Part shown: positions 21,767 through 39,590 of the stretch, in pieces
Numbering within the stretch: the stretch's first letter is position 1
How the letters are laid out: each line of letters opens with the position of its first letter
From: Rickettsiales bacterium
Lineage (GTDB): Bacteria; Pseudomonadota; Alphaproteobacteria; Rickettsiales; UBA1997
DNA length: 64,000 bases
Direction: 5' to 3'
NCBI GenBank assembly: GCA_018969185.1
Contig: JAGWYT010000002.1
Location: forward strand, 20,703 to 84,702
Notes under the pieces: model-generated
Told to the model about the DNA's origin: nothing
What the model saw: the letters and a program-made list of their open reading frames with translations, nothing else
Database searches by the model: none
Program-made: the position numbers and the translations under genes

Positions 21767-23047
21767 ATGCTTAAGCAACAGGATAAAATTTTTACTAATC
21801 TTTATGGTTATCAATCTCCAGATTTGGAGCATGCAAAAAAAAGAGGAGATTGGGCGGACACAAAAAAATTTCTCGATAATGGTGCTGATTGGTTAATCGA
21901 ACAAGTTAAGGCTTCTGGTCTTCGTGGCCGTGGTGGTGCGGGTTTTCCAACGGGAATGAAATGGTCTTTTGCGCCAAAAAAATCTAATCCTTCGATCGGA
22001 AAGCCACATTATTTAGTTATTAACGCTGATGAGTCTGAACCCGGAACTTGTAAGGATCGTGAGATTTTAAGAAATGATCCACATAAATTAATTGAAGGTT
22101 GTTTACTTGCATCTCGTGCGATCAATGCTGAAACATGTTATGTTTATATTCGTGGAGAATACTATAATGAAGCAGTGGCTTTACAAAAAGCAATTGATGA
22201 AGCTTATGATGCAAAATTAATTGGCAAAAATGCCTGCAATTCAGGATGGAATTTAGATATTTTTATTCATCGTGGAGCTGGTGCTTACATATGCGGAGAA
22301 GAAACTGCGCTTCTTGAAAGTCTAGAAGGTAACAAAGGTCAACCACGTTTGAAGCCGCCATTTCCAGCGCTTGTTGGTTTATATGGTTGTCCAACAATTA
22401 TTAATAATGTGGAATCAATTGCTGTGGTGCCAGAAATTTTGCGTCGTGGTGCCTCATGGTTTGCAGGATTAGGGCGTGAAAAAAATACGGGAACAAAAAT
22501 TTTCTGTATTTCAGGACATGTAAATAATCCATGTAATGTTGAAGAAGAAATGGGAATTCCTCTCAAAGAATTAATTGAAAAACATGCTGGTGGAGTGCGT
22601 GGTGGTTGGGATAACTTATTAGCGGTTATTCCGGGTGGCTCTTCAGTTCCTTTAATAAATAAAGAAGTTTGCGATACAGTTTTGATGGATTTTGATTCAT
22701 TAAAAAGTGCGGGTACAGGGCTTGGAACTGCTGGTGTTATTGTGATGGATAAATCAACAGATGTTGTTGCAGCAATTGCAAGACTTTCACATTTTTATAA
22801 GCATGAGTCTTGTGGTCAATGCACGCCTTGCCGTGAAGGAACTGGTTGGTTGATGCGTATCATGGATCGTATGATTGAAGGTAATGCTAAAGTTGAAGAG
22901 ATTGATCAACTTTATAATTTAACAAAACAAATTGAAGGTCACACAATCTGCGCTTTGGGCGACGCTGCTGCTTGGCCAGTTCAAGGCTTGATCAAAAATT
23001 TCCGTCCTGAAATGGAGAGAAGAATCACAAGTCATAAGTCTCAATAA
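21767..23047 (+). CDS. nuoF: NADH-quinone oxidoreductase subunit F
   Basis: [26 protein letters not shown] and the 4Fe-4S motif [12 protein letters not shown]. No other nuo genes flank it. Confidence 0.95.
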
Positions 23048-23063
23048 TGTTTAAAAAATACAT

Positions 23064-23103
23064 GAGTTTATTACCCTTCCCTCAAGGGGAGGGTAATAAA
23101 CTC
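23064..23103 (+). terminator. Hairpin downstream of nuoF
   Basis: The stem is GAGTTTATTACCCT ... AGGGTAATAAACTC around a short loop. No clear T run follows. Confidence 0.4.
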
Positions 23104-23128
23104 GTGTATAAAAATAAATAAAGAAATC

Positions 23129-23162
23129 ATGTCTAAAACAGTTGCATTAATTACAGCATGTG
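23129..23162 (+). other. Duplicated copy of the ispDF 5' end (start codon plus 10 codons)
   Basis: ATGTCTAAAACAGTTGCATTAATTACAGCATGTG matches 23270-23303 ATGTCTAAAACAGTTGCACTTATTACAGCTTGTG with 3 mismatches in 34. Confidence 0.8.
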
Positions 23163-23241
23163 CCAGTCGTTGCGTAGCACGACAAATAAACCAGTCGTTG
23201 CGTAGCACGACAAATAAAAGACCGTTGCGTAGCACGACAAA
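23163..23241. repeat. Array of about 3 copies of the 28-bp hairpin repeat
   Basis: The unit (C)CAGTCGTTGCGTAGCACGACAAATAAA has the hairpin GTCGT-TGCGTAGC-ACGAC. It is the same unit as the array at 36356-36494. Confidence 0.85.
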
Positions 23242-23269
23242 AAATTAATTAATAACGACTACATAATCT

Positions 23270-24466
23270 ATGTCTAAAACAGTTGCACTTATTACAGCTT
23301 GTGGTCGTGGAAACCGCTTCAATAAAGGCGAAGGAATACCAAAGCAATATTTGTCACTTGCTGGAATTCCGCTGTTACGTCATTCAATTCTTGCCTTTCT
23401 AAATCATCCAAAAATTGATGATGTGATTTGTGTTATTCATCCCGATGATATGCAATTTTATGAAGAGGCATCTGCTGGGCTTGATTTGTTAAATCCAGTT
23501 TTTGGTGGTGAAACAAGACAAGCGTCAATTCGTCTTGGTCTTAAGGCTTTAGAAGAATATAATCCAAGCAATGTTTTAATTCATGATGGCGTTCGTCCTT
23601 TTGTTTCAAAGAGAATTATTAGTGGTGTTTTAGAAAAATTAGAAACTCATCCAGCGGTAATTCCGGCAATTGCGGTTGAAGATACAATTAAAAAATATGC
23701 TGATGGAAAAATTGAATGGACTTTGGAGCGTGAAAATTTATGGCGCGCGCAAACTCCGCAAGGATTTACCTATCAAGATATTTTAAATTCTCATAATGCT
23801 TTTAAAGATTTGCATTTCACTGATGATTCGGCGTTAAATGAATATGCCGGCATTCCAGTTGCAATAATTCCTGGTTCACAAAATAATTTTAAAATTACTA
23901 CCGAAGAAGATTTTGAGCGTGCGAAGGCAATGATCACAACTCTTATAACCAATGTTAAAGAAGAAATAAGATGTGGTATTGGCTATGATGTTCATGCTTT
24001 TAGAGAAAGAGAAAAAGATGAAGATGATATAATTCGTTTATGTGGTGTTGAAATAAAACATGATAAAAAAATCAAAGCTCATTCTGATGGCGATGTTGCA
24101 ATTCATGCCGTGATTGACGCGCTTCTTGGCGCAATTGGTGAAGGAGATATTGGTGATCATTTTCCGCCAAATGATTCAAAATGGGAGAATTGCGATTCTC
24201 GCGAAATGTTAAAAATAATTAGTCATTTATTGATAAAAAAAGGTGCAACAATTTTAAATATTGATGTGACTATAATTTGTGAGAAACCAAAAATTTCTAA
24301 ATTTAAAGATCAGATGAAAGCATCTTTAGCGGAAGTGTTAAATATCTCTAGATCTCGTGTTAATATCAAAGCGACAACAACTGAGAAGTTAGGTTTCTTA
24401 GGCAGAAAAGAAGGTATTGCGGCGGAGAGTGTTGCAAGTGTTAAAGTTGGTTTTGTTGAGGAATAA
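23270..24466 (+). CDS. ispDF: Bifunctional MEP cytidylyltransferase / MEcPP synthase
   Basis: The N-terminal half is IspD-like (ACGRGNRF...PKQYL). The C-terminal half is IspF-like (GIGYDVHAF, HSDGDVAIHA, ATTTEKLGFLGRKEGIA). Confidence 0.93.
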   Translation: MSKTVALITACGRGNRFNKGEGIPKQYLSLAGIPLLRHSILAFLNHPKIDDVICVIHPDDMQFYEEASAGLDLLNPVFGGETRQASIRLGLKALEEYNPSNVLIHDGVRPFVSKRIISGVLEKLETHPAVIPAIAVEDTIKKYADGKIEWTLERENLWRAQTPQGFTYQDILNSHNAFKDLHFTDDSALNEYAGIPVAIIPGSQNNFKITTEEDFERAKAMITTLITNVKEEIRCGIGYDVHAFREREKDEDDIIRLCGVEIKHDKKIKAHSDGDVAIHAVIDALLGAIGEGDIGDHFPPNDSKWENCDSREMLKIISHLLIKKGATILNIDVTIICEKPKISKFKDQMKASLAEVLNISRSRVNIKATTTEKLGFLGRKEGIAAESVASVKVGFVEE

Positions 24467-30636: not shown

Positions 30637-31251
30637 ATGTCTCAAACCTCTCTACATAAGGCTCAAGAAAAATTATTAGAAATTTTATCAAAAAATTGTG
30701 ATGAACCTTTAACAGTTAGGGAATTACAAGAATTAATTGGAGCTTCTTCAACAAGTGTGGTGGCGCACCATATGGCACAGCTTGAGAAGAAAGGTTATTT
30801 GAAAAAAAATCCTTATAATTCTAAAGATTATCAAGTTTTAAAATGCCCTGATAAGGAAATTGCCTATTTAAATTTATATGGTCTTGCAACCTGTGGTCCA
30901 AATGCTTCACTGCTTGATGGAAACCCAATTGATCGTGTGCCAGTTTCAACAAAATTTTTAAGTTTTTCTTCCGAAAATGCTTTTATGGTTAAAGCGAAAG
31001 GTGATTCAATGTTGCCAAAAATTAGTAATGGTGATTTTGTAATTATTGAAAAAACCAATAAGGTAGATAACGGCGCCATGGTTTTATGCGTTAGTGATGA
31101 GAAGGTGATGATTAAGAAAATAAAACAAAATAGTAAAAAAGATCCGGTAATTTTAGTTTCACTAAATAATGAATTTGAGCCTTTCTTAGCAGCTAATGAT
31201 TTTAGAGTTGAGGGTGTGGTAAGGGGTGTTATAAGTAATAGGATGTTCTAG
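30637..31251 (+). CDS. LexA-like repressor (winged HTH plus S24 self-cleaving peptidase domain)
   Basis: The N-terminal wHTH reads LTVRELQELIGASSTSVVAHHMAQLEKKGYL. The linker has a Cys-Gly where LexA has Ala-Gly (LATCGPNA). Catalytic Ser is in KGDSMLP and Lys in VMIKKI, followed by a C-terminal VEGVVRGVI. Confidence 0.8.
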   Translation: MSQTSLHKAQEKLLEILSKNCDEPLTVRELQELIGASSTSVVAHHMAQLEKKGYLKKNPYNSKDYQVLKCPDKEIAYLNLYGLATCGPNASLLDGNPIDRVPVSTKFLSFSSENAFMVKAKGDSMLPKISNGDFVIIEKTNKVDNGAMVLCVSDEKVMIKKIKQNSKKDPVILVSLNNEFEPFLAANDFRVEGVVRGVISNRMF

Positions 31252-31319
31252 AAATCAACTCAGAATCAGATGCTAAATAGGTTCTAAATTTTGTTACATA
31301 ATTTCACCACAAAAAAACC

Positions 31320-31703
31320 ATGGAAAAAGATTTTTACGAATGGAGTAATTTAAAAACCAAACTAAATGTTAGAAAAAATATTCCAACTTTTAAACAGGGT
31401 GAGATCTGGTGGTGCAGCATTGGTGTCAACATAGGTTGTGAAGAAGATGGTAAAAATGAGATGTTTAACAGACCAGTTCTAATAATAAGAAAATTCAATA
31501 ATAATATGTTTCTAGGTGTTCCTTTGAGCACAAAAATAAAAGATAATAAATATTATTTTCAAATCTATTTCTCTAAGAGGGTTAGCAGTGTTTTATTATC
31601 ACAAATAAGAGTTTTTGAAAGCAAAAGATTAACGCACAAAGTTGCAACTTTAGCAGGAGAACAACTTGAAAATGTAAGAGAAAAAATAAGAGAGATGATT
31701 TAG
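31320..31703 (+). CDS. PemK/MazF-family toxin-like protein
   Basis: 127 aa with the GEIWWCSIGVNIGCEEDGKNEMFNRPVLII pattern (GxIWW...G.E..G..RPVLII) characteristic of the MazF/PemK SH3-like fold. Confidence 0.65.
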   Translation: MEKDFYEWSNLKTKLNVRKNIPTFKQGEIWWCSIGVNIGCEEDGKNEMFNRPVLIIRKFNNNMFLGVPLSTKIKDNKYYFQIYFSKRVSSVLLSQIRVFESKRLTHKVATLAGEQLENVREKIREMI

Positions 31704-35614: not shown

Positions 35615-36297
35615 AATATCATTTCTTCGGCAAAGATTGTATAATTGATCGTAGTTTATTAAATAGAACAGATATATTGCAAAGCCTTACAAATAAAGGC
35701 TTTAAATATGATGAATTATTATTTGTAAATCAAATTCACAGTTCAGAAGTTATTGTAATTGATGATCGAAAAAAAATTTTTCCTGCAGAAAATTTACCAA
35801 AAGCTGATGCGCTTGTAACCAATTTGAAGAATATTGCTATTGCTGTTTTTACGGCAGATTGCTCACCAATTTGTTTATTTGATGAAAAAAATTCTGTGAT
35901 TGCAATTGCTCACGGAGGTTGGCGCGGAGCTAGATCAGGCGTGATTAAAAACACAATTTTAGAAATGAAAAAACTGGGCGCAAAAAATATTAAAGCGGTA
36001 ATTGGACCAATGATTCAGCAAGAGTCTTACCATATTACTGAAGAATTTTTTGATGAATTTTTACGTGAAAATAAAGATAATGCAAAGTTCTTTAAGGAAA
36101 CGCAGGAGAAGGGTTGTTACCTCTTTGATTTGCCAGCTTACGTTATAGAAAAATTAAAAGCAGAACAGATTTCTGATATTGAAAATACAGGGATTGATAC
36201 TTGTGAAAATGAAAATGATTTTTTTAGCTATCGTAGAAGTTCAAAGCGCGGCGAGAAAGATTGCGGTAGGAATATTTCGGTGATTTGTATTAATTAA
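35605..36297 (+). CDS. pgeF: YfiH/PgeF-family (DUF152, laccase-domain) protein
   Basis: QIHSSEV, ADALVT, TADCSPI and HGGWRGA motifs. Confidence 0.85.
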   Translation: MSVKYHFFGKDCIIDRSLLNRTDILQSLTNKGFKYDELLFVNQIHSSEVIVIDDRKKIFPAENLPKADALVTNLKNIAIAVFTADCSPICLFDEKNSVIAIAHGGWRGARSGVIKNTILEMKKLGAKNIKAVIGPMIQQESYHITEEFFDEFLRENKDNAKFFKETQEKGCYLFDLPAYVIEKLKAEQISDIENTGIDTCENENDFFSYRRSSKRGEKDCGRNISVICIN

Positions 36298-36336
36298 TCG
36301 AAGTTTGAGAAAGATTCAATTCTAGTAATTTTTGAG

Positions 36337-36355
36337 AGTGGTGCCTGAAGCTGGA
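36337..36355. other. Duplicate of the tRNA-Phe 3' end
   Basis: AGTGGTGCCTGAAGCTGGA matches 36526-36544 AGTGGTGCCTGAAGCCGGA in 18 of 19 positions. The two copies bracket the repeat array. Confidence 0.8.
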
Positions 36356-36494
36356 CCTGTCGTTGCGTAGCACGACAAATAAACCTGTCGTTGCGTAGCA
36401 CGACAAATAAACCTGTCGTTGCGTAGCACGACAAATAAACCTGTCGTTGCGTAGCACGACAAATAAAGACTTGTTGCGTAGCACGACAAATAAA
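36356..36494. repeat. Tandem array of the 28-bp hairpin repeat (4 perfect copies, 1 variant, then a degenerate tail to about 36525)
   Basis: CCTGTCGTTGCGTAGCACGACAAATAAA is repeated four times, at 36356, 36384, 36412 and 36440. It is followed by GACTTGTTGCGTAGCACGACAAATAAA. Confidence 0.95.
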
Positions 36495-36527
36495 GACTTG
36501 TTGTATTAGGATTGACTTGGAATAAAG

Positions 36528-36603
36528 TGGTGCCTGAAGCCGGAATTGAACCAGCGACACAAGGATTTTCAGTCCTTTGCTCTACCAACTGAGCTATTCA
36601 GGC
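36528..36603 (-). tRNA. tRNA-Phe (GAA)
   Basis: Reverse complement is GCCTGAATAGCTCAGTTGGTAGAGCAAAGGACTGAAAATCCTTGTGTCGCTGGTTCAATTCCGGCTTCAGGCACCA. It folds as a cloverleaf with anticodon loop CTGAAAA and an encoded CCA. Confidence 0.92.
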
Positions 36604-39251: not shown

Positions 39252-39590
39252 TTAGTTAGCAGCTTTAGGAGCAGCAGCTTTAACTTCAGCTTTAGCAGCT
39301 GGAGCAGCAGCTACAGGAGCAGCAGCTTTTTCTTCAGCTTTAACTTCAACAGCTTTTTTAGCTTTTCTAGCTTTTTTAACAACAGCTTTAGTTTCAGCTT
39401 TAGCTTCAGTTGTAGCAGCTACAGGAGCAGCAGCTTTAACTTCAGCTTTAGCAGGAGCAGCTACAGGAGCAACAGCTTTAACTTCAGCTTTAGCAGGAGC
39501 AGCAGCCACAGGAGCAGCAGCTTTAACTTCAGCAGCATTAGCATTAGCAGCGAATAAAATCGCAGCAAGAACTAGTGATAACTTTTTCAT
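39252..39590 (-). CDS. Secreted Ala/Lys/Val-rich tandem-repeat protein
   Basis: Signal peptide ending ANA, then repeated AEVKAAAPVAA(A)PAK units and a basic KKARKAKKA core. The underlying DNA is an imperfect tandem repeat that is visibly more GC-rich than its surroundings. Confidence 0.6.
   Translation of the reverse strand: MKKLSLVLAAILFAANANAAEVKAAAPVAAAPAKAEVKAVAPVAAPAKAEVKAAAPVAATTEAKAETKAVVKKARKAKKAVEVKAEEKAAAPVAAAPAAKAEVKAAAPKAAN

Follow-up and report, generated by a model that had tools for sequence, protein, structure and literature searches.

Insertions into essential genes are normally lethal, and several integrative elements that enter genes restore the gene end, as at tRNA 3′-end attachment (att) sites, with phage 21 and e14 in icd, with SXT in prfC, and with the islands in dusA; for tRNA-targeting integrases, the tract from the T loop to the 3′ end is the classic sublocation. 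Repetitive extragenic palindromes (REPs) and bacterial interspersed mosaic elements (BIMEs) are imperfect palindromes of 20-40 nucleotides (nt), extragenic, species-specific, sometimes clustered, marked by a GTAG tetranucleotide and linked to REP-associated tyrosine transposases (RAYTs), and REPs are high-copy and dispersed, usually lie in inverted pairs, and insert without target duplication. Mycobacterial interspersed repetitive units (MIRUs) are minisatellites, tandem repeats between operon genes with a short open reading frame (ORF) running into the repeats beside the downstream start codon, and template switching at quasi-palindromes occurs in E. coli. Tandem accretion at att sites is seen in ssrA islands with tandem direct repeats (PMC3146451) and in cis-mobilisable elements (PMC5704250), insertion sequences of the IS1634 and IS1549 type are flanked by long direct target repeats whose length varies (8-514 bp reported; PMC2266710), and complex insertions have been ascribed to fork stalling and template switching (FoSTeS) or microhomology-mediated break-induced replication (MMBIR) (PMC5120786, PMC3678771). 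The subject here is a cassette of tandem 28-nt hairpin units in a 64,000-nt stretch, henceforth the window, of a Rickettsiales bacterium (GCA_018969185.1, contig JAGWYT010000002.1, positions 20,703-84,702, forward strand). Two essential genes have received it close to an end, ispDF 34 nt from the 5′ end and tRNA-Phe 17-25 nt from the 3′ end, and it has been passed down across ~10% sequence divergence or more. The event was duplicative and non-conservative: the severed gene end was copied, so that a fragment stays at the ancestral place and a complete gene is restored beyond the insert, and because of this copying the cassette survives in essential genes.

The window is alphaproteobacterial DNA (~32% GC) of a freshwater organism (markers TrcR, CcmE and fused ispDF), and words of the array are present in freshwater sequencing runs of at least ten studies dated 2017-2025. 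The product of ispDF carries out two steps of the 2-C-methyl-D-erythritol 4-phosphate (MEP) isoprenoid pathway, indispensable to bacteria without a mevalonate route. The locus is laid out as follows:

21767..23047, plus strand: nuoF-like gene (NADH dehydrogenase 51-kDa subunit family; Pfam Complex1_51K, SLBB, NADH_4Fe-4S), the upstream neighbour of ispDF, kept as neighbour in relatives
23129..23162, plus strand: displaced copy (D-L) of the first 34 nt of ispDF, a direct repeat at the ancestral position after nuoF
23163..23218, plus strand: two perfect 28-nt units CCAGTCGTTGCGTAGCACGACAAATAAA (23163-23190 and 23191-23218), each with the hairpin GTCGT-T-GC/GTA/GC-ACGAC, by repeat finding and folding
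23219..23245, plus strand: variant terminal unit AGACCGTTGCGTAGCACGACAAAAAAT, beginning AGACC, its 5′ arm damaged
23246..23269, plus strand: 24-nt AT-rich tail TAATTAATAACGACTACATAATCT
23270..24466, plus strand: intact ispDF, 398 amino acids with IspD and IspF domains, its N-terminus aligning with relatives; the gene-proximal copy (D-R) makes up its first 34 nt

The original prediction, made from the letters alone, was that the first 34 nt of ispDF occur twice with three mismatches, and this is directly legible in the sequence: the 34-mer ATGTCTAAAACAGTTGCATTAATTACAGCATGTG stands at 23129-23162 and its second copy at 23270-23303. Such a pair was found in none of 100 shuffles of the window, and all three mismatches (3/3) are synonymous in the ispDF frame (TTA/CTT for Leu, GCA/GCT for Ala). 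The duplication may extend 4 nt further upstream (AATC / AATCT). Between the copies, about three units and an AT-rich tail had been described; array and tail are as stated, the precise form being two perfect units, one variant (AGACC) and the 24-nt tail. Tandem Repeats Finder assigns the array a 28-nt period and 2.9 copies over 23163-23241. The 18-nt hairpin core occurs eight times in the window against 0.01 expected, the 28-nt unit folds at -7.0 kcal/mol, and covariance model R1 scores perfect units at 43.7 and 26.3 bits.

Comparison with related genomes reveals empty sites. In the closest public relatives, whose IspDF is 85-86% identical, the distance from the nuoF stop to the ispDF ATG is 11, 6 and 30 nt, as against 222 nt in the window, and a more distant, 83%-identical contig joins 23016 to 23268; the cassette is missing from all of these spacers. 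The context just upstream of D-L, ATAAATAAAGAAATC-ATG, matches ATAAATAAAGAGATT-ATG at the place where ispDF starts in relatives (contig L004), and in a relative ~90% identical, described below, D-L starts 9 nt past the end of nuoF. The intact gene has therefore, as had been proposed, been displaced by about 140 bp from its original upstream region. The two copies are identical to each other at 31/34 positions and to four relatives at 26-28/34, and share four derived bases (positions 4, 11, 24 and 27) that are absent in all four relatives. Judged from these lineage-specific bases, which a foreign attP copy would not share, the ispDF duplication arose in place and was not imported. No empty allele within the species was encountered in twelve metagenome runs. 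Two origins were first offered, namely insertion accompanied by a target duplication of unusual length, and a scar left by recombination or repair. Insertion as such is borne out by the empty sites, the ancestral context and a second bracketed array (see below), and its mechanism may have been either transposition-like or that of a repair scar.

An assembly error was the obvious objection to such a structure, and a reassembly that collapsed the duplication had been named as grounds for abandoning it. In other samples and studies, Logan contigs cover 23027-23509 without a single difference (metagenome run X1) and 23075-23506 (run X6), so that the duplication does not collapse. Since two perfect units are too short to make a cycle at k=31, the path through the ispDF array is unambiguous and its unit count reliable. 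Short-read assemblies do often fail at repeats, and no k=31 contig spans the second array; against this, contigs from different studies cross the whole ispDF structure without difference, a diverged orthologue keeps the architecture, and the left junction of the second array recurs in another strain. The probability that the structure is a collapsed or chimeric repeat is thus next to nil, and for the ispDF array an artefact is already refuted. The strain in run X6 also has a mosaic identity to the window, with one or two differences over 22618-23433 followed by seven in the next 43 nt of ispDF, and, at pgeF, 11 differences in the 235 nt up to 36267 and none nearer the second array (window 36150-36384). 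The segments around both arrays (22618-23506 and 36150-36384) look as if recently exchanged by recombination.

Whether other arrays would also be bracketed by duplicated target sequence had been posed as a test, and the one other array in the window passes it, the duplicated target there being the tRNA-Phe 3′ end:

36337..36355, no strand assigned: displaced 19-nt copy (one mismatch) comprising the final 17 nt of tRNA-Phe and two nt of its flank, starting 39 nt past the pgeF stop
36356..36525, plus strand: second array, with four perfect units CCTGTCGTTGCGTAGCACGACAAATAAA (36356-36467), a variant beginning GACTTG (36468-36494) and a decayed unit or tail (36495-36525), its copy number not verified by k=31 contigs
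36526..36603, minus strand: intact tRNA-Phe(GAA) at 36528-36603 (ARAGORN; Rfam 72.7 bits), with the gene-proximal 19-nt copy at 36526-36544 (repeat D2)

Its perfect units are of a CCT type and its variant unit begins GACTT. Both arrays have the same order and polarity, namely displaced fragment, intact units, variant unit, tail and intact gene, and their orientation relative to transcription is opposite at ispDF and tRNA-Phe. A scan of the window for short-range direct repeats yielded no other such bracketed structure. Relatives, whose contigs are labelled L004, L014-L022 and L025, extend the picture. The left junction of the second array was found independently in a strain with PgeF 98% identical (L014), and three lineages with PgeF 69-73% identical (L015, L019, L020-22) have empty tRNA-Phe sites. 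In the lineage L016-18 (PgeF 70%), two tandem 87-nt repeats lie between pgeF and tRNA-Phe, each consisting of 7 flanking nt and the last 25 nt of the tRNA, a 32-nt duplication that runs from the T-loop region to 7 nt past the tRNA 3′ end, and then CATGTTGGTGCGTAGAACAACAAGATAAA plus 30 bases. The hairpin block in L016 is plainly homologous to the window unit, its stem altered from GTCG/CGAC to GTTG/CAAC.

Some further features of this locus deserve mention. At 3853-3871 of L016, GCTGGTTTAAATTGTTCGG, an inverted near-copy of the T arm of tRNA-Phe, precedes a T-rich run and in a tRNA-sense transcript could pair with the real T arm. Large palindromic elements resembling miniature inverted-repeat transposable elements (MITEs) lie upstream of tRNA-Phe at 4030-4170 in L016 and 2380-2520 in L020; the former contains 21-nt tandem repeats and is missing in L017, whose sequence is otherwise identical there, and the latter has CCCCTCC/GGAGGGG hairpin tips that resemble those of a 52-nt palindrome in the window (see below).

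The age of the ispDF insert can be gauged from one lake metagenome, which holds a relative ~90% identical in nuoF. A 165-nt contig of this relative, which covers 23133-23298, differs by 26 substitutions and one deletion and keeps the architecture of the window, namely both ispDF copies, three units and tail. Its units, reconstructed approximately with three substitutions unlisted, read CCTGTCGTTGCGTAGCACGACTAAAAT, TATTTCGTTGCGTAGCGCGACTAAAATT and ATTTCGTTGCGTAGCACGACAGATAAA. By this approximate reconstruction, 3/53 hairpin-core positions have changed relative to the window as compared with 16/30 in the linkers (Fisher p=1.4e-6). The two window arrays differ at 1/28 positions per unit, and a third linker type, CGATATATAACTTGTTGAGTAGCACGAC, is found in other runs. 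Linkers are hence lineage-specific and homogenised within a genome, because the window arrays are near-identical while the ~90% orthologue has other linkers, and the core is constrained. On this alignment the ispDF insert is old, predating ~10% sequence divergence, and evolves in concert.

How the cassette compares with the known classes of repeat may now be considered. Like REPs and BIMEs, the unit is an extragenic, species-specific and clustered imperfect palindrome, and it contains GTAG in its loop, 5′ of a stem only when read across two neighbouring units; unlike them, it occupies two loci in the window as direct tandem units with duplications of 19-38 nt, and no RAYT gene accompanies it there. 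Like MIRUs, the cassette consists of intercistronic tandem repeats with a short ORF near the downstream start; it differs in its 28-nt unit, not a multiple of three, in the flanking gene-end duplications and in a decoy frame that is not conserved. A derivative of a MITE or DDE transposon fits poorly, given that there are no terminal inverted repeats, the left ends CC(A/T)GTCGTTGCG and the right ends ..ACGACTACATAATCT and ..GACTTGGAATAA sharing only the hairpin arm, and that the target duplication is neither short nor fixed (19, 32 and 34-38 nt). Nor has the cassette the make-up of a CRISPR array, as the units abut without spacers and no cas gene is present in the window.

Searches for copies, enzymes and parent elements came back empty within their respective scopes. 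Among the ~58 ORFs of the window there is no integrase, transposase, RAYT, reverse transcriptase or Cas1, and Rfam finds only two tRNAs there. GTDB representative genomes, JGI metagenome contigs and IMG/VR do not contain the unit, apart from five single chance hits, all on high-GC contigs; IMG/VR queried with a degenerate hairpin pattern and the tRNA-fragment/hairpin junction gave no match, and neither array had a match in phage records. Run against the window and 72 kb of DNA from relatives, a covariance model built from seven variants detected no additional copy, its hit at 17358-17388 being a chance match inside a gene, and no solitary or diverged copies accompany the two arrays in the 64 kb or occur in the relatives' 72 kb. 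Several further possibilities gained no support: derivation of the unit from tRNA-Phe or ispDF sequence (p>0.1; it resembles neither target), longer decayed duplications in a comparison of tails with native flanks (p=0.11-0.72, not significant), and a resemblance to the hairpin in native sequence of the L025 spacer (not significant). Between the tails of the two arrays there is no similarity.

The reading we favour, with a probability of roughly 40%, is a rare duplicative insertion by template switching during replication or repair, followed by slippage and gene conversion, without a dedicated mobile-element enzyme. A nascent strand would stall, switch template into hairpin-forming DNA and return upstream of its departure point, as in the serial template switching of FoSTeS/MMBIR, and the outcome would be a direct duplication with patches of templated sequence; the array would then be altered by replication slippage, and gene conversion would homogenise the two arrays of the genome as the 18-nt core stayed constrained. 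Template switching is favoured because the inserts carry inverted copies of target sequence and because GTCGT, identical to the 5′ arm of the hairpin, stands in ispDF directly after the duplicated segment. In the ispDF tail, ACGACTACA matches in inverted form, at 8/9 positions, the target sequence TGTGGTCGT from the duplication's inner edge; the tail of the ~90% relative reads ACGATCACA where the window has ACGACTACA, from which the ancestral patch may have been a perfect ACGACCACA (inverted match of ACGACTACA against ACGACCACA, p~0.055). The L016 insert has GCTGGTTTAAAT, an inverted copy of the target GCTGGTTCAAAT, again at the inner edge of its duplication (p~0.001). Templated inverted patches of this kind are typical of serial template switching (PMC5120786). 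The very low copy number and the rarity of the events are further reasons to prefer it, and the duplication lengths vary (19, 32 and 34-38 nt), with ends that have neither terminal inverted repeats nor a common target motif. Direct duplication around a copied insert, short inverted templated patches, rarity and variable length are all shared with documented FoSTeS/MMBIR insertions (PMC5120786, PMC3678771), which are, in contrast, known mainly from eukaryotic structural variants and do not feature a recurrent, long-conserved hairpin core. If template switching is responsible, the locus would be a clear natural case in bacteria of a complex templated insertion that was fixed and then underwent concerted evolution at two loci.

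Several observations sit uneasily with template switching. The core is conserved far beyond the linkers, which a passive scar would not require and which suggests that a protein recognises it or that it has a function. The exact junctions have no clean microhomology, CCA lying between TGTG and GTCGT at the left junction, and a search for a donor of the 24-nt ispDF tail found none. The similar duplication sizes (19-38 nt, n=3) and the shared polarity of the window arrays hint at an enzyme with a ruler, and copy number and gene content were read for the 64-kb window rather than a whole genome. Finally, in a matrix of PgeF identities the two filled lineages (window and L016) are not grouped and the nearest sampled relatives are empty, so either two separate insertions struck tRNA-Phe, or a single old insert underwent several precise losses via its flanking repeats.

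These points lead naturally to an enzymatic alternative, unlikely in our estimate, in which the cassette would be a very small mobile element, non-autonomous and dependent on an enzyme encoded elsewhere in the genome: this enzyme would recognise the hairpin and insert it at staggered cuts ~20-40 bp apart, gap filling would yield the long duplication, and units would be added beside the displaced fragment. It would account for one unit at two unrelated targets in identical order and polarity, for duplications of similar size, for a conserved core with diverging linkers, and for the finding that in all three arrays read (two in the window, one in the ~90% relative) intact units lie beside the fragment and decayed ones beside the gene. 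The stems of the window and of L016 also differ by one compensatory change, C-G to T-A, but this covariation is not significant (reached by 122/500 shuffles). IS1634 and IS1549 offer a precedent for long, variable direct target repeats (PMC2266710); those elements, however, measure 1.5-2 kb and have an IS4-type transposase and terminal inverted repeats, whereas the cassette is a tandem array and neither was found in the window. The inverted target copies inside the inserts would be left unexplained by such an enzyme, and it is also disfavoured by the mere two loci in 64 kb, with no dispersed copies, and by a total of at most three events over a long evolutionary span. That the 28-nt unit is specifically the substrate of a new insertion system with a 20-40-bp stagger, through a ruler-type integrase or otherwise, with units added at one end, is a rather unlikely proposition; if true, it would be a new way of moving DNA and the smallest mobile DNA module known, surviving in essential genes by regenerating the severed end. 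Very improbable, in turn, is a miniature or decayed integrative element, moved by a tyrosine integrase acting in trans on an attP that already carried the gene end, such that the duplication represents attL and attR. The succession of displaced gene-end fragment, insert and intact, restored gene does recall integrative elements, as do copies that differ only synonymously, the use of the same tRNA in two lineages, the L016 duplication from the T-loop region to 7 nt past the tRNA-Phe 3′ end, and the order fragment-insert-fragment-insert-tRNA in L016, which resembles the tandem accretion in ssrA islands (PMC3146451) and cis-mobilisable elements (PMC5704250). Yet conservative recombination cannot duplicate a new target site, and the ispDF copies, with their four shared lineage-specific bases, were made in place and not brought by an attP, which leaves this explanation weak for ispDF. 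The insert, moreover, is only 107-170 bp of 28-nt tandem hairpins, its targets are unrelated and without a common core site, no integrase or other recombinase was found in the window, and no parent element turned up in IMG/VR or phage records.

An explanation of another kind, quite improbable to our minds, would do without mobility altogether. A host regulatory module could have been built in place, a small local tandem duplication of each gene end coming first and the array then being recruited or spread between the two loci by gene conversion. Selection would maintain it, perhaps because proteins bind the array or because it acts as an RNA element in tuning the expression of ispDF and of tRNA-Phe/pgeF. 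The unit number is kept across ~10% divergence and the core is conserved; precise loss via the flanking repeats should be easy, yet the twelve metagenome runs had no empty allele within the species; and the closest relatives have, in their empty tRNA-Phe spacer, the 8-mer AACCTGTC with which the unit starts (p~0.03, uncorrected). Gene conversion, on the other hand, needs prior homology, and the unit resembles neither target. A shared regulatory role also fits poorly with the opposite orientation of the arrays relative to transcription, with terminator-like hits that occur only on the minus strand and in tandem context and are missing in single L016 units, and with the lack of conservation of the decoy frame.

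Whether template switching or an enzyme is responsible, the cassette would rewire the translation start of ispDF, since it places the gene behind a decoy frame and three RNA hairpins, and it may affect ispDF expression, as had been suggested. A 40-codon decoy ORF reading from the upstream copy into the repeats had been predicted; the ORF does exist, at 23129-23248, its length being 39 codons plus stop, in frame with ispDF (141 nt apart). Two TAA codons inside the 24-nt tail, at 23246 and 23264, close the frame, and the ORF ends 21 nt before the true ispDF ATG. This frame relation is not kept in the ~90% relative (140 vs 141 nt). Ribosomes starting at the old start codon would make a 39-codon decoy peptide. 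A search for sigma-70-like promoters in insert and tail called none and the plus-strand hairpins have no T tract, from which it follows that ispDF is probably still co-transcribed with nuoF by read-through of the array. An intrinsic terminator was considered and rejected, for its hits are confined to the minus strand and to tandem context, where the T tract TTTATTT is supplied by the next unit, and in single L016 units the hairpin is not followed by a T tract and folds no better than shuffles. For annotation, the locus carries a caution, in that the first ATG with the correct N-terminal peptide is here not the gene start. The minus strand of the 28-nt unit, as it happens, contains no stop codon in any frame (84-nt period, FICRATQRQVYLSCYATTGLFVVLRNDR), with chance odds roughly estimated at 1 in 8, and spurious ORFs consequently run through the arrays (23163-23245 and 36356-36494), an example being 23071-23235; the 84-amino-acid periodic translation of that strand gave no hits as a protein query.

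One more feature separates nuoF from the displaced ispDF start:

23058..23109, no strand assigned: 52-nt palindrome with 25-nt arms (inverted repeat I1; RNA fold -38.8 kcal/mol, z = -10.5)

This palindrome is near-perfect, with a G-rich tip CCCTTCCCT/AGGGGAGGG and AAAAAT on each flank, and is unique in the window. It is absent from the 86%-identity relatives and from the ~90% relative, where 23052 is joined to 23129. Because the latter has the cassette without the palindrome, the palindrome is a younger, separate insertion that lies outside the cassette.

Elsewhere in the window, a probable chromosomal replication origin is located at 3297-3566, between a bolA-like gene (minus strand) and hemE. 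It holds three copies of TGTTAATAAnTnTGTTGATAA (3303, 3436 and 3500), each with a DnaA-box-like TGTTGATAA, together with a CtrA-like TTAA-N7-TTAA, and the cumulative GC skew climbs from ~4 kb on. Relative to this probable origin, both hairpin arrays share one replichore and one orientation. At 30637-31703, a gene for a MazF/PemK-family toxin directly follows that for a LexA-like repressor, with no antitoxin between them by Pfam. At 39252-39590, on the minus strand and adjoining a tRNA-Thr gene, a 112-amino-acid ORF without a Pfam match is made up mostly of 42-nt tandem repeats rich in GCT/GCA (alanine). Lastly, an RTX-type operon occupies 8193-15337 on the minus strand and encodes an HlyC-family acyltransferase, a TolC-like outer-membrane protein, an ABC exporter, an HlyD-like fusion protein and a 733-amino-acid RTX-repeat protein with 198-nt internal repeats.

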